Source: an uncultured Nitrososphaerota archaeon (GTDB lineage: Archaea; Asgardarchaeota; Njordarchaeia; Njordarchaeales; Panguiarchaeaceae). From it: 15,096 bases of DNA. Below the pieces are notes generated by a model. The model saw only the letters and a list, made by a program, of their open reading frames with translations. It searched no databases and had not been told where the DNA came from. The stretch is taken from NCBI GenBank assembly GCA_964636085.1, contig CAZWPQ010000046.1, positions 1 through 15,096 on the forward strand, written 5' to 3'. The position numbers were made by a program, and so were the translations under genes. Each line of letters begins with the position of its first letter. The first letter of the stretch is position 1. Of the stretch, positions 5,564 to 10,037 are shown piece by piece.

Positions 5564-6703
5564 TTATTCCCCATATCTATATATGGCATCATTGGGGACT
5601 CTCCTAGGTTTTTCTGTTACGGTAAGCCCGGTGGTTTGATCTATAGTATATGGCATCTTTACTATCCTGTGTAAATCATAGCGACCAGTTTTATCCCGGA
5701 AATTATAGTTGTCTACAAGACGGCCTAGCGCCGATATTATTTCTTCTATTTCCTCTACCCTAAATTCTATGCCATCGGATGGATCACAGATATATATGTG
5801 ATATCCTTTTTTACCACTAAATAAAATCCTAGTGTTGTATCCTAATGACTCCAGATACATCTTTATATGGCGTATCTTCTCTTCCAAATTCTTTTTTATC
5901 ATCTCGACATAATACTTGTAATGAATGGGAACATTCTTGTCAGAGACGTCAACATCTAGAACACCAATAACATATGGCAATGGGTGTCCTCTGCCATAAT
6001 ACTCGGCTATTGGGTTTACCATTCTGGCTATGGAATAGTAGAGCTTTATCGGATAGATCCCCCTCTTGAGTAGCCCCCTTATTTCAATCCTAAATTTTTC
6101 CTCTGGGCTATATTTAGGTGTTTTACTAAGCCTTCTCCTAAGACCGACCCACTGCCCTTTATGTGTTAGTATTCTGATGTGTCTCTTGGCTAAATGATCT
6201 ACGATCCATGCAGGAAAACTGTACTGCGAATAATATCTCTCAATACTGTCCTGGTCTGGTCTGAATATGTATATTTCGGCATGATTCTTTGGAATATCTG
6301 GAGATGTTTCCCTTGCCAATATTATACACCGCTTAAACCCAAGAATCTTCTTCTTTTTCAAGTAATACTTAAGCCAAGACTCATCAAGAACCCCCCAGTG
6401 AACCTCCACCATCGTTTTTTCCCCAAAGTTGACACCATCAATCTCACGCTGGATCCCATTTATATTGAACACAACAGAATGCAGAAATCCCATATCTAAC
6501 AGCTTGCTGACAGCGAAAAGGCCCCTATACTCCAGCCACTCGCTCCGAGTCCGCTCATGCCTATTCTTCTTGTATATCACTATGACCCCATCCTTTATTT
6601 TTCTTCTAAATAGCTCCCCACTTAATGGATCCATGTTCTTACCTTCATAGGTACGATTAATATATGTTAATACATCATCGAGATCTCTTTCCTCGATATT
6701 CAT
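5564..6703 (-). CDS. Fusion protein: N-terminal PD-(D/E)xK-like domain plus C-terminal archaeo-eukaryotic primase (PriS-like) catalytic domain
   Basis: AEP motifs: GVLDVD (DxD at 5948-5956), FSGKKGYH (5798-5818) and DLHRIVKMPYT...TG, plus the PriS-like ERYY and KLYYSIA...P elements. The N-terminus has WLE...REIDGV...MVEVH. Start placed at MNIEER (6703) with GGGTG upstream; a TTG at 6754 is possible. Confidence 0.8.
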   Translation of the reverse strand: MNIEERDLDDVLTYINRTYEGKNMDPLSGELFRRKIKDGVIVIYKKNRHERTRSEWLEYRGLFAVSKLLDMGFLHSVVFNINGIQREIDGVNFGEKTMVEVHWGVLDESWLKYYLKKKKILGFKRCIILARETSPDIPKNHAEIYIFRPDQDSIERYYSQYSFPAWIVDHLAKRHIRILTHKGQWVGLRRRLSKTPKYSPEEKFRIEIRGLLKRGIYPIKLYYSIARMVNPIAEYYGRGHPLPYVIGVLDVDVSDKNVPIHYKYYVEMIKKNLEEKIRHIKMYLESLGYNTRILFSGKKGYHIYICDPSDGIEFRVEEIEEIISALGRLVDNYNFRDKTGRYDLHRIVKMPYTIDQTTGLTVTEKPRRVPNDAIYRYGE

Positions 6704-6849
6704 TGTTAGAGAAACACCCTTGAGTATTATTACCAGCTTCAATATGGGCACCAACCATATAATCTATAGAAATTAGACAAATATATATGGCATAACCCAC
6801 CCATACCATTAACAATAACACATAGATAAGACCACATGCTGATGATTAA

Positions 6850-6886
6850 ACAACATATTAATGTTGTATCTTAAAAATAGTTTTTC
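6850..6886. promoter_or_regulatory. Candidate operator palindrome next to a TATA/BRE-like element in the divergent intergenic region
   Basis: ACAACAT-N4-ATGTTGT at 6850-6867; the minus strand reads GAAAAA-CTATTTTTAAG immediately upstream of it. Confidence 0.4.
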
Positions 6887-6899
6887 ATATATTATATTA

Positions 6900-6994
6900 C
6901 CCCCGTTGGCGGTTTTTTGAAAGATGAGCCCCATCTCGGGGCCGATGATTAGTAAAACCGCTGAAATTCGCGAATTTCCACCCGCCAACGGGGG
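6900..6994 (+). ncRNA. Putative structured RNA or cis-element with K-turn / C-D box-like motifs
   Basis: Perfect 13-bp terminal inverted repeat CCCCCGTTGGCGG / CCGCCAACGGGGG; internal GCCCC/GGGGC hairpin flanked by two GATGA motifs; CTGA at 6961-6964; 16-bp palindrome GAAATTCGCGAATTTC at 6963-6978. It is a GC-rich island in AT-rich intergenic DNA. Confidence 0.6.
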
Positions 6995-7068
6995 CCCTCA
7001 CTTGCAGTTATAAGCATGGGGACTTAGATTTGATAAAGTCCACATCGCTCTATTGCAAACTATACAGA

Positions 7069-7698
7069 ATGACTAAATGGAAATGGGATGAGCTCCGGTC
7101 TATACCTAATGTAGTTGTGGCGAAATTGTACGCCATTGAGAAATTCCCATCAATACTTGGTCTTGGTGAAGATAGATTAAGAAGGATGCTTGATAGGTAT
7201 CCTCCTCCGCTTATCTTTCTTCTGCCCAGAAAACGCGCCATTGCTCTATTCTCAATTTTTGCTGGTCTTGTTGCCGAAATGGAGCACCAAAATCCTCCCG
7301 CAAGTTTTGATCTTATAGCCGATTTCTTTGAGGTTGATTTAGAGCAGGATTTGCAATATTATTTGAGGTATAGACTATGCTTATATAAATTGGTGGCGCC
7401 TGTTAGGCATCTACTTGGACTCCCACAAAGGACAGATCCTTATCGCTATGAAGTGTCCCTAAGTGACGCTGAGGCACATCTCCTCATGAGATTTAGTTCA
7501 CCAGCTAGCATTATGAGGGAGATCTATAATATTGCTAAGCTACATAATATTAGAGGCTCGGTAATATTCACATACTCCCTTGTACATACCTTAGACAGAA
7601 TAGCGCGATACCTTAGAATGCGGGAGGAGGGGCTTATTCATAGGTCAATAGACTACTTGGCTAGGAGATATAGGAGTATTCTTGGGGGACTATACTAG
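7069..7698 (+). CDS. Hypothetical alpha-helical protein (weak resemblance to a TFB/cyclin-like repeat)
   Basis: 209-aa ORF from ATG at 7069 (the track starts at TTG 7030). Basic and Leu/Tyr-rich; PASFDLIADFFEVD resembles the TFB PRTLDEIA...VD segment. Confidence 0.65.
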   Translation: MTKWKWDELRSIPNVVVAKLYAIEKFPSILGLGEDRLRRMLDRYPPPLIFLLPRKRAIALFSIFAGLVAEMEHQNPPASFDLIADFFEVDLEQDLQYYLRYRLCLYKLVAPVRHLLGLPQRTDPYRYEVSLSDAEAHLLMRFSSPASIMREIYNIAKLHNIRGSVIFTYSLVHTLDRIARYLRMREEGLIHRSIDYLARRYRSILGGLY

Positions 7699-7724: not shown

Positions 7725-10037
7725 CTATTCTAATCTATACTCTACATATGTAGCGAATCTATTTGATTCACGCAATTTTGCCCCAACCAGCTCGGTGTTT
7801 GGATCCGCATATATTCGAAGACCCTCCATTCTTCTCAGGGGTGAGAGATCAATACTGTCAAGTGTACTTATGCATATCCAGAGCTCCTCAAGGTTTCGGC
7901 ATTCTGCTAATGGGGAAAGATCAAGCTCTTCTATCTCGTTGCCCGAGATGCTAAGTACCCTCAGGTTTCTACAATTAGATAGGGGAGACAGGTCCACATA
8001 TTCTAGGTTGTTCATGTCAAGCCATAAGCATTCGAGTTTAACACAGTCGGATAGGGGTGAAAGATCTATCGTATTTAGCCTATTTCCCGATAATTCTAGC
8101 CATCTTAAATATTCACAATGTGAGAGGGGGGATAGGTCTATTCTTTCGATAATATTATTGCTGAGTGATAATTCCTCCAATCGTTGACATATAGAAAGCG
8201 GAGACAGGTCTATTTCTCTTATCCTATTCCCCGCTAGTCCAAGTATTCTAAGTCTTTTGGAGAGAGGCAAACGGGCTAGGTCTATTTCTTCAAGTTTGTT
8301 ATAATTTAGGTATATCTCCTCTATTGTAGGATACACGGCAAGCACCATAAGATCCACACTAGCGATGCCTAGACCCGATAAGTCTATCCCAAAGATACGT
8401 CCATCCCTAGCCATAATTCTTCTCTTTACTGCATTTGTATCGATTCCTAGATTATTGGATAGGGATTTCAGAATCTCATCTACCTTAACGATCTTCTTTA
8501 TTTTCCCATCAATTATCTTGTATCCAAGTTTCTGTATGATCAATTTTGTATCCTCTGGGTGTATCTTGACCATCTTTACGATGGTATCTATGCTTTTCCC
8601 GTCCAAGTTTAGTTTACTCAGGTATTTTCTAACATTATTAAGGAGGCCCTTCCTATACCATAGATTAGAATTAGATGGCGATCTCTCGGCGTGTTTTTTT
8701 AGTAGGGCTATCAAATCCTCTTTTTCGAGGCCCTCTACTTCACTCGTCAGTATCCATCCTTTCGTTCTTAGTGTATCCAATATGTTGCTCACGCGCTGTT
8801 CCCAGTAGTTCCTGCCGTACCACATGCCACTTCTCAGGGATGGAACCGCAGAATCTTTCAGTATTTCCTCGAGGTCTTCCTTCAATATCTTTAGCTTCTT
8901 TATCTCTATGTCTGAAACGATTATCTTTGGATTATTAACTAATTTCTCCTTAACCTTGTTGATGTGATCTATGCTGTAATATACTCCTGGGCGCTTAGAT
9001 GGGACTGCATATTCGCTTAGAGCCAAATATGTCTCTACATCCTCTTTAGATATGTCCAGTTTTTTCGCCAGGATCCCCACGGTAACAACCTTCATCTGCC
9101 TTAGCAATTTTTCTATGGAGCCCAATGGTCCACTAGAAATTTCTTCATATGTAGGCTCATATTCCTTGGCTCTATGTATTGGTGATCCATACTCTATGGG
9201 TCTCGGAGAAACAATGGATGCATGCCTCTTCAAGGATTCTACTACTATCCCGATATCTAATGGTCTATCCTCCTTCTTCTTCTTTAAGCAGGCCAGAATA
9301 ATTTTTTGGAGCCACTCAGGAGAATGCTCCATTGGTTCGAGCTCTCCCTGCGTTATCTTTGCAATCAATTCTAGAGGAGATAGAAACGATGATATTGGAG
9401 GTTTACCCTCGACCATTTCATATAGGAGACATCCAAACTGCCATATGTCTGTTCGCCAGTCAACTCCACCAAATTTCTTTGGATATATCTGCTCTGGGGC
9501 ACTATAGAGTGGAGTCCCTGGATACTTACTAACCGTCGCTGAGACCTTCAATAACATTACTGCTATTCCAAAATCGGAAATCTTTGGAATATCATTCTTA
9601 AAGAGTATGTTCTCAGGTTTTATATCCATATGTACAATCCCATGGTGGTGTATCTTGCTCAATGCCTCGGCGATTTTTATTCCTATGGCTATGGCCCTAT
9701 CCAGCGGGAGTGGGCCACTTTTAAGTAGTGTTCTCAGGCTATAGTCACAGTACTCCATGGCTATCCATGGAATGGGATTTGTATCGTACTCCTCGACATA
9801 TACTATGTCATCCGGATATTTCTTACTCAATATTTTCCATGTTTGGGCTTCCCTAAGGAATTTTTCGATATCATCTTTTGTTAGTGTCTCCGTCACTTCC
9901 AATGATGGTATCTTGATAGCATACTTTTCTCCATTCTTCTCAGCAAGATACACACTAGAGGATCCTCCTCTTCCAATGCATCTCAGTATTTTATAGCCAG
10001 TGACCTCGGCAAACAACTTTGCCGATATACCTCTCAT
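7725..10037 (-). CDS. Hanks-type Ser/Thr protein kinase with central tandem repeats and C-terminal leucine-rich repeats
   Basis: GRGGSSSVY, AIK, FLREA, HMDIKPEN, SDFG, GTPLYSAPE and DIWQFG kinase motifs; about 8 LRRs of 24 aa (LxxLxLxxNxIxxIDLSPLxxC). Confidence 0.93.
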   Translation of the reverse strand: MRGISAKLFAEVTGYKILRCIGRGGSSSVYLAEKNGEKYAIKIPSLEVTETLTKDDIEKFLREAQTWKILSKKYPDDIVYVEEYDTNPIPWIAMEYCDYSLRTLLKSGPLPLDRAIAIGIKIAEALSKIHHHGIVHMDIKPENILFKNDIPKISDFGIAVMLLKVSATVSKYPGTPLYSAPEQIYPKKFGGVDWRTDIWQFGCLLYEMVEGKPPISSFLSPLELIAKITQGELEPMEHSPEWLQKIILACLKKKKEDRPLDIGIVVESLKRHASIVSPRPIEYGSPIHRAKEYEPTYEEISSGPLGSIEKLLRQMKVVTVGILAKKLDISKEDVETYLALSEYAVPSKRPGVYYSIDHINKVKEKLVNNPKIIVSDIEIKKLKILKEDLEEILKDSAVPSLRSGMWYGRNYWEQRVSNILDTLRTKGWILTSEVEGLEKEDLIALLKKHAERSPSNSNLWYRKGLLNNVRKYLSKLNLDGKSIDTIVKMVKIHPEDTKLIIQKLGYKIIDGKIKKIVKVDEILKSLSNNLGIDTNAVKRRIMARDGRIFGIDLSGLGIASVDLMVLAVYPTIEEIYLNYNKLEEIDLARLPLSKRLRILGLAGNRIREIDLSPLSICQRLEELSLSNNIIERIDLSPLSHCEYLRWLELSGNRLNTIDLSPLSDCVKLECLWLDMNNLEYVDLSPLSNCRNLRVLSISGNEIEELDLSPLAECRNLEELWICISTLDSIDLSPLRRMEGLRIYADPNTELVGAKLRESNRFATYVEYRLE
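7800..8396 (-). repeat. LRR-coding tandem repeat with 72-bp period
   Basis: IDLSPL/VDLSPL/LDLSPL recurs every 24 residues. Confidence 0.85.

Follow-up and report, generated by a model that had tools for sequence, protein, structure and literature searches.

A predicted K-turn RNA of a previously undescribed family accompanies an accessory primase-polymerase module in Asgard archaea

What is the GC-rich, self-complementary element that lies between two divergent genes in the genome of an uncultured Asgard archaeon, and does it act as RNA or as DNA? The window analysed here comprises the entire contig C46 (15,096 bp) of the MAG G000 (2.4 Mb, 83% complete), and the element (6900-6994, plus strand) sits in the 314-nt spacer separating the two genes. 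Its GC content is 56% compared to 39% across G000, and its predicted fold of -42.2 kcal/mol (z = -4.05) was equalled by none of 200 shuffles. Inverted repeats of at least 13 bp with at least 50% GC and arms 20-200 nt apart number about six in the whole assembly, the element among them. A preliminary description of this DNA had pointed to a perfect 13-bp closing stem, to two GAUGA motifs (6923-6927 and 6944-6948) flanking a GCCCC/GGGGC hairpin and to a second hairpin further downstream. All of these are present, the last one as a perfect palindrome. The description had recognised no tRNA, SRP, SECIS or riboswitch, and our searches agree with it: ARAGORN detected no tRNA in the element, Rfam 15 gave no match at or above the gathering threshold for the window (chance-level matches only at E up to 10), and the eight loci with family members gave no Rfam match at E up to 0.1. 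The positions of all features are collected in Table 1.

Table 1. Positions in the window of the predicted RNA, its structural parts, the upstream boxes and the two neighbouring genes
Feature	Position	Strand	Remarks
Accessory primase-polymerase (AEP) gene, 396 aa	5564-6754	-	Divergent from the RNA; weak PF01896/PriS matches
TATA-like box TTAAAAATA	6871-6879	+	About 25 nt 5' of the first P1 base; putative RNA promoter, judged from sequence
AT-rich block TTTTCATATATTATATTA	6883-6899	+	Directly 5' of P1; one mismatch to L042 while the remaining spacer diverges
P1 5' arm CCCCCGTTGGCGG	6900-6912	+	13-bp closing helix; perfect complement of 6982-6994; same in L042
NC helix 5' strand / P2a UUUUUUGAAAGAU	6913-6925	+	U6925 = 3n, A6924 = 4n, A6921 = 7n
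K-turn G(2n) A(1n)	6926-6927	+	Non-bulged strand, abuts C helix 5'; in 13/13 family members
P2b hairpin GCCCC-AUCUC-GGGGC	6928-6942	+	C helix of the K-turn; covarying upper pairs
Extra C6943, bulge G6944 A6945 U6946, G6947(1b) A6948(2b)	6943-6948	+	CGAUGA invariant in 9-sequence alignment
NC helix 3' strand and J2/3	6949-6962	+	Contains conserved AAAAC (6954-6958)
P3 hairpin, perfect 16-nt palindrome GAAATTCGCGAATTTC	6963-6978	+	L042 and L137 counterparts at the same place
J3/1 CAC	6979-6981	+	ACC motif = 6980-6982; ACC(Y)G invariant in 13-sequence alignment
P1 3' arm CCGCCAACGGGGG	6982-6994	+	Pairs with 6900-6912
Partner protein gene, 209 aa, all-helical	7069-7698	+	RNA 74 nt upstream, same strand

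DNA similarity searches of the element found nothing, with 15-23 nt chance matches only in 60 relatives, and we therefore followed the flanking proteins (synteny) and then used a structural descriptor to find homologues. This brought to light 12 further copies in eight other loci, i.e. a small family of 13 copies, some of them closely related and from incomplete genomes. The syntenic metagenome contig L042, whose flanking proteins are 72% and 67% identical to those of the window, carries the element at 1976-2072. P1 is identical in the two (100%), P3 of L042 is a different perfect palindrome (GTATTATGCATAATAC) with three pairs altered on both sides, and the pairing of P2b is kept via changes from C-G to A-U and from G-C to G.U; all 58 cells of this comparison are paired compared to 37-61% in slid controls. 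AEP homologues at 35-39% identity led to L134 (3305-3395, minus strand) and L137 (2505-2598, plus strand), which have a window-like architecture with several compensatory changes and non-conserved irregularities in P1; the P3 of L137 is AAGAACGTACGTTCTT. An Asgard-wide AEP profile search was positive in 15 of 400 genomes, and scanning these loci with the structural descriptor yielded copies in L155/G192 and L135/L136, one in G161, three to four in tandem in G188, and two in tandem plus a distant one in G160.

Several broader screens were less productive. Protein-guided scans gave no homologue in viral contigs and added, from metagenome and genome contigs, only contigs ending right at the gene. 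An exact motif scan of genome contigs returned 90 matches, which were taken as chance and none of which scored with our covariance model R1. The phylum-wide pattern GAGT..ACGATGAW..AAAC was too noisy, with matches in 155 of 400 genomes and a similar picture, by eye, for a reversed-pattern control; the 30 loci derived from it all failed the full descriptor, one of them lying within a coding region. A GC-island screen of G000 was likewise unspecific (416 islands). The core motif of the descriptor occurs by chance about once per 155 kb in G000, and its combination with a long GC-rich P1 was found there only at the flagged site. Based on the similarity search and this descriptor scan, G000 holds one copy of the element.

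All 13 copies fold as a three-way junction in which P1 is followed by P2b, AAAC, a variable P3, ACC and the 3' arm of P1. The family RNAs are 90-129 nt long and are closed by a P1 helix of 7-13 bp. The core has the order 5'-GA, P2b hairpin, GAU, GA in all members, with AAU in place of GAU in one of them, so that GAUGA stands 3' of the hairpin in 12/13 and AAUGA in 1/13. P2b comprises 3-7 bp throughout, and its first pair is G-C in 12 members and G.U in one. In every member, GAUGA is followed 4-7 nt later by (R)AAAC or GAAC, and the one or two P3 hairpins are variable, their conservation being limited to pairing. As MAFFT gave no consistent alignment across the clades, family-wide covariation was tabulated with our own script, and only clades B and C entered the second covariance model, R2, which is mostly a sequence profile. 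In P1 of these two clades, five of six pairs are changed on both sides, 94% of the cells are paired compared to 4-49% in slid controls, and the covariation score was reached by none of 500 shuffles. Pairing is kept through compensatory changes in P1, P2b and P3 alike, which is the outcome of the covariation analysis that the preliminary description had proposed. Since homologues elsewhere preserve the helices in this way, the element is beyond chance. All nine G.U pairs fall on the GAUGA-carrying strand, and GAUGA, AAAC and ACC are strand-specific, in agreement with the plus-strand RNA suggested originally. As judged from sequence, 6900-6994 is a conserved, folded plus-strand RNA of a previously undescribed family; the literature searched holds no account of this RNA or of such a module of AEP and RNA.

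The preliminary description had also noted a K-turn-type motif for L7Ae. The signature is indeed present in 13 of 13 copies, but the symmetric GAUGA/GAUGA loop drawn for it needs a corrected register: such pairing is possible in the window clade only. In the other clades just GA remains on the 5' side, and for this reason we rejected both the symmetric loop and a K-turn whose C helix is the outer helix. In a standard K-turn, a three-nucleotide bulge is followed on the 3' side by G.A and A.G pairs (PMC4382518). In the window register, the sheared pairs would be G6947.A6927 and A6948.G6926, followed by U6949.U6925, U6950-A6924 and U6953-A6921, the last of which is replaced by C-G in L042, a compensatory change. 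Across the family, 12 of the 13 members have C-G at -1b.-1n, 3b.3n is U.U, A.A or U.C and covaries as U.U or A.A, and 4b-4n is a Watson-Crick or wobble pair in the window, L042 and three G188 copies and U.U or a mismatch in the others. The window and L042 have four unpaired nucleotides (CGAU) compared to the standard three, or else C6943 is bulged within the helix. The conserved core is thus predicted to be a near-standard K-turn, with P2b as C helix, a GAU bulge and tandem G.A/A.G pairs. These pairings argue well for the C helix and, in some clades, weakly for the NC helix. Like standard K-turns (Kt-7, U4 snRNA, box C/D), the core would close its Watson-Crick C helix with C-G, have U as the last bulge base, show tandem G.A/A.G pairs of the sheared type and form a non-Watson-Crick pair at 3b.3n, either A.A or the U.U known from box C/D. 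It departs from them in that its C helix is capped to form a hairpin, its NC helix enters a three-way junction and, in the window clade, the bulge has one more base. G000 encodes two L7Ae-family proteins, and binding of L7Ae to the predicted K-turn is expected in this archaeon. A hammerhead (CUGAUGA...GAAAC) was considered and rejected, given the wrong order of elements and no Rfam match.

The surroundings of the copies suggest how they may be expressed. In 13/13 copies, an AT-rich, TATA-like box precedes the first P1 base by about 20-33 nt, and a U-run directly follows P1 in the L135, L145b, L146 and G188 copies. Tandem arrays consist of 2-4 units with a promoter-like box for each. The G161 copy and the third G160 copy stand alone in convergent spacers and precede no gene. 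No U-run terminator was found 3' of P1 in the window or L042; a U6 run inside the window RNA (6913-6918) could terminate archaeal transcription. About 30 nt before the ATG of the gene at 7069 there is a TATA-like GATAAAG, conserved with L042, which suggests that this gene has its own promoter. A scan for bacterial sigma-70 promoters and terminators was set aside, its consensus being bacterial and the host archaeal.

We then characterized the genes next to the RNA. The partner protein, often Zn-ribbon-tailed across the module, belongs to no Pfam family, and its confident AlphaFold model (pLDDT 85) has no PDB fold match by Foldseek. In the AEP, the motifs DxD, SGxKGxH and hDxHRI are invariant in 15 homologues. 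As a canonical PriS is encoded elsewhere in G000 (C6), the product of 5564-6754 is an accessory enzyme. A third, weak AEP-like match in this genome (G000:C1:135741-136175, L203; 22.7 bits to PF01896) lies in a 402-aa open frame, and the descriptor scan of G000 found no K-turn RNA near it. In seven loci (window, L042, L134, L137, L155/G192, G188 and G160), the partner gene directly follows the RNA in the same orientation, with gaps of 14-87 nt in the window, L042, L134, L137, L155 and G160 and of 28 nt in G188. The AEP gene varies in position: it may be divergent, follow downstream in an operon or lie a few kb off, as in G188, where 3.9 kb separate it from the partner gene and the RNA array.

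Among close relatives, we found the RNA in AEP-carrying genomes only. In counts from few, related and incomplete genomes, with 150 first-pass candidates per genome scored, model R2 found the RNA in 2/2 AEP-positive compared to 0/4 AEP-negative genomes of the genus g62, and in 2/2 compared to 0/5 genomes of the order of G160. Every R2 match was on the AEP contig. With model R1, the RNA was found in G000 only among the 14 genomes of its order; in G003, the other AEP-positive genome of the genus, the contig ends 66 nt upstream of the gene. Six AEP-positive genomes had no such RNA in the flanks scanned, where a relaxed descriptor gave nothing convincing, and the module is patchy across several Asgard lineages. 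The joint occurrence of RNA, AEP and helper protein suggests an RNA-protein machine. Among the three roles offered in the preliminary description (leader of the 7069 gene, atypical C/D RNA, primase-associated RNA), the last fits best.

Some loci contain further elements or genes in or beside the module. At the equivalent place in L140 (1733-1881, = G099:C140), which belongs to an AEP clade without the K-turn RNA, there is a different 149-nt element with a perfect 11-bp closing stem (z = -3.5) and a TATA-like box about 20 nt upstream. It overlaps the called TTG start of a 546-aa partner-like gene and may be an analogue of the K-turn RNA. In G188, two genes are located between the AEP gene and the RNA array with the partner gene (L159:2827-5976, G188:C113), encoding a 280-aa HFX_2341-like/winged-helix protein and a 716-aa protein without a Pfam family; in this lineage, the module may include both. 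In the window, a gene for a 770-aa Ser/Thr kinase with C-terminal leucine-rich repeats (7725-10037, minus strand) adjoins the module, as it does in L042, and has strong PADLOC matches to the kinase models mad6 and PD-T4-6.

With moderate confidence, we consider the element to encode a K-turn sRNA of a new family that has its own TATA box, belongs to a three-part module with the partner and the AEP, and serves as a subunit or scaffold of an RNP. The RNA would be transcribed from its own TATA box and fold into a three-way junction closed by the 13-bp helix, L7Ae would fix the kink of the K-turn, and the conserved AAAC/ACC junction would be recognised by the partner and/or the AEP. The RNA would then act together with both proteins and beyond the role of a mere mRNA leader. 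What the comparisons show is conservation, covariation, the K-turn sequence signature, promoter-like boxes and U-runs, and the linkage and co-occurrence of the genes; that the RNA is transcribed, is bound by L7Ae, touches the partner or the AEP and has any activity is our inference. An RNP subunit is favoured because a promoter-like box and a U-run belong to the RNA itself, because it is found in arrays and also standing alone, and because it is strictly inherited with the module. A more specific version, in which the RNA is the template, primer or targeting scaffold of an AEP-based polymerase machine and is held by L7Ae and the helical Zn-ribbon partner, is at present doubtful.

The main rival to an RNP subunit is a purely cis-acting 5' leader of the partner mRNA, to which L7Ae, the partner, the AEP or a small ligand would bind so as to set translation or read-through of the gene, by autoregulation or in the manner of a riboswitch; we regard it as unlikely, albeit a serious contender. 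Most copies are upstream of and co-oriented with the partner gene at 14-87 nt from its start, and L137 has an SD-like GAGG between element and ATG. In L134, L137 and L155, the element ends only 14-24 nt before the start codon of the partner, so these copies are most simply explained as mRNA leader. U-runs after P1 could serve as attenuators, and L7Ae is known to control translation via K-turns in archaeal 5' leaders (PMC5539422, PMC6298567). The leader role suggested for the 7069 gene in the preliminary description accordingly holds for position, most copies being just upstream of its orthologue, but not for those copies that are stand-alone with their own promoter-like box and U-run: the G161 and third G160 copies precede no gene. 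The promoter-like box of each unit in the tandem arrays and the separate promoter that GATAAAG suggests for the 7069 gene also speak against a leader. The two-state switch proposed for this role relied on a competing stem of GGCGGUUUU (6908-6916) and AAAACCGCU (6954-6962), which is present in the window but has two mismatches in L042. With a 13-bp GC helix as stable as P1 and no conservation of the alternative pairing, we see no helix that could switch, and the switch was abandoned.

Alternatively, the element could work as DNA: in single-stranded or supercoiled DNA, its nested inverted repeats would fold into hairpins or a cruciform, which the adjacent AEP would recognise, prime at or cleave. 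Operators, the single-strand initiation sites of plasmids and the stem-loop origin of the pRN1 type would be comparable. The element adjoins a primase-polymerase gene, the window and L042 share a P1 of 100% identity, more than structure alone demands, P3 is a perfect palindrome, and helix covariation would preserve DNA hairpins equally. Yet GA...GAUGA, AAAC and ACC amount to a K-turn signature that is specific to RNA and confined to one strand, on which all G.U pairs fall, a promoter-like box and U-run bracket the element, the G188 array abuts the partner gene 3.9 kb off the AEP gene, and the locus looks chromosomal, without hallmarks of a plasmid or virus. We consider a DNA site very unlikely. 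The chance is smaller still that the element is a precursor that is cut at a BHB (two 3-nt bulges separated by a 4-bp helix), circularised or permuted, or that it is a MITE or the relic of a solo terminal inverted repeat. This lineage uses long leader/trailer stems in such processing, as in the permuted 5S element on C34 of G000 described below, and the 13-bp inverted repeats resemble TIRs. However, P1 is perfect in the window and L042, and no bulge pattern is conserved elsewhere. The preliminary description had named many dispersed copies with target-site duplications as the mark of a MITE; G000 has a single copy and the 60 relatives have no DNA match, no dispersed identical copies with such duplications were seen, and elsewhere the copies form tandem genes at a single locus and show helix covariation.

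Least probable of all is an atypical archaeal box C/D guide, composed of a C'-like GAUGA, the 12-nt guide UUAGUAAAACCG and a D box CUGA (6961-6964). The spacing GAUGA-12 nt-CUGA (6944-6964) that suggested it does exist in the window, the element shares the K-turn chemistry of C/D RNAs, and 6939-6997 has a match to snoR11, a plant snoRNA, which is at chance level (21 bits compared to a 50-bit gathering score, E 0.49). But CUGA reads UCAG in L042 and is absent in all other homologues, there is no D' box, and the putative guide region varies freely. In the family register, the first GA of GAUGA is bulge and not sheared pair, and 90-129 nt with a closing helix of 7-13 bp is far from the 50-70 nt C/D format. 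The guide complement CGGTTTTACTAA occurs nowhere else in the assembly, which is a weak test in a MAG whose only rRNA sequence is an LSU 3' fragment. The guide, switch, MITE and BHB readings fail because the features that define them were not found.

Known RNA systems resemble the proposed RNP subunit in part. Archaeal box C/D and H/ACA guides are likewise small RNAs built around an L7Ae-binding K-turn, which H/ACA RNAs carry in a distal arm above a long basal helix. Unlike these guides, the family has no conserved D box, D'/C' pair or conserved single-stranded guide, and its genetic ties are to a protein-coding module instead of genes for rRNA modification. The sequence 3' of P1 is different in each member, with no ANA in common, and no H/ACA-type ACA/ANA box was found there. 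Y RNAs and the bacterial Yrl RNAs beside Ro60 (rsr) share a length of about 100 nt, a long conserved stem of the 5' and 3' ends, variable internal hairpins, a U-rich 3' tail and tandem paralogues beside a protein gene; with no Ro orthologue and no Y-RNA motif (no Rfam match), this is an analogy only. The K-turns of L7Ae-regulated archaeal mRNA leaders also lie upstream of a start codon. They are short stem-loops ahead of genes such as those for L7Ae and Nop5 (PMC5539422, PMC6298567), unlike the 90-130 nt three-way junction with promoter-like box and terminator that occurs also away from start codons.

Retron msr-msd with its RT, DRT ncRNAs and telomerase RNA have in common with this family a structured RNA with long terminal inverted repeats, adjacency to a polymerase gene and an accessory protein, and joint inheritance. 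In contrast to them, the polymerase is here an AEP and not a reverse transcriptase, RNA-templated or RNA-primed synthesis by it is hypothetical, and no sequence or Rfam similarity exists. A retron-type ncRNA is recognised by a reverse transcriptase gene beside it and by a branching G that adjoins the a2 repeat, and no RT domain was found among the window proteins.

Archaeal K-turn RNPs have so far been essentially the ribosome, RNase P, the C/D and H/ACA guides and a few mRNA leaders. If the RNP reading is true, the family would be a further class of archaeal K-turn RNA, tied to a DNA enzyme instead of RNA modification. Retron-like RT systems and telomerase aside, no polymerase gene is known to us that is inherited with a structured RNA of its own, and the literature searched describes no AEP primase-polymerase travelling with one. 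Should the reading as an AEP machine be correct, it would be, in principle, an archaeal counterpart of retrons, DRTs or telomerase. Asgard archaea are the closest prokaryotic relatives of eukaryotes, and RNA, helical partner and AEP together provide a three-part testable system in this group. The descriptor and the two covariance models can be used to annotate these RNAs, which Rfam and tRNA tools miss.

Other structured elements were noticed in G000. A 161-nt element on C34 (19328-19488; L032, about 229-389) has an 11-bp closing stem and reads as a circularly permuted 5S rRNA, in which the 3' half (GCTAAGCC...GAGTAG) precedes the 5' half (GGCCATAG...CCGAACTCGGAA); no Rfam 5S match was obtained at E<0.01. 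Two paralogous, GC-rich structured RNAs of about 160 nt without Rfam match are located at C7:2558-2720 (plus strand, L029) and C17:779-936 (minus strand, L030). Their terminal stems of 14-15 bp differ in sequence with the pairing kept, and they contain long conserved interior blocks. A 78-nt element at C40:7108-7185 (L028), also without Rfam match, has a 13-bp closing stem of 92% GC (AGGCCGGCCCGGG) and lies in a 250-nt GC-rich island. Finally, beside the LSU rRNA 3' fragment at a contig end, L033:67-120 (minus strand; G000:C1, about 178966-179019) matches the C/D box model sR17 with 26.7 bits compared to a gathering score of 36 bits and is a candidate ordinary C/D sRNA of G000.
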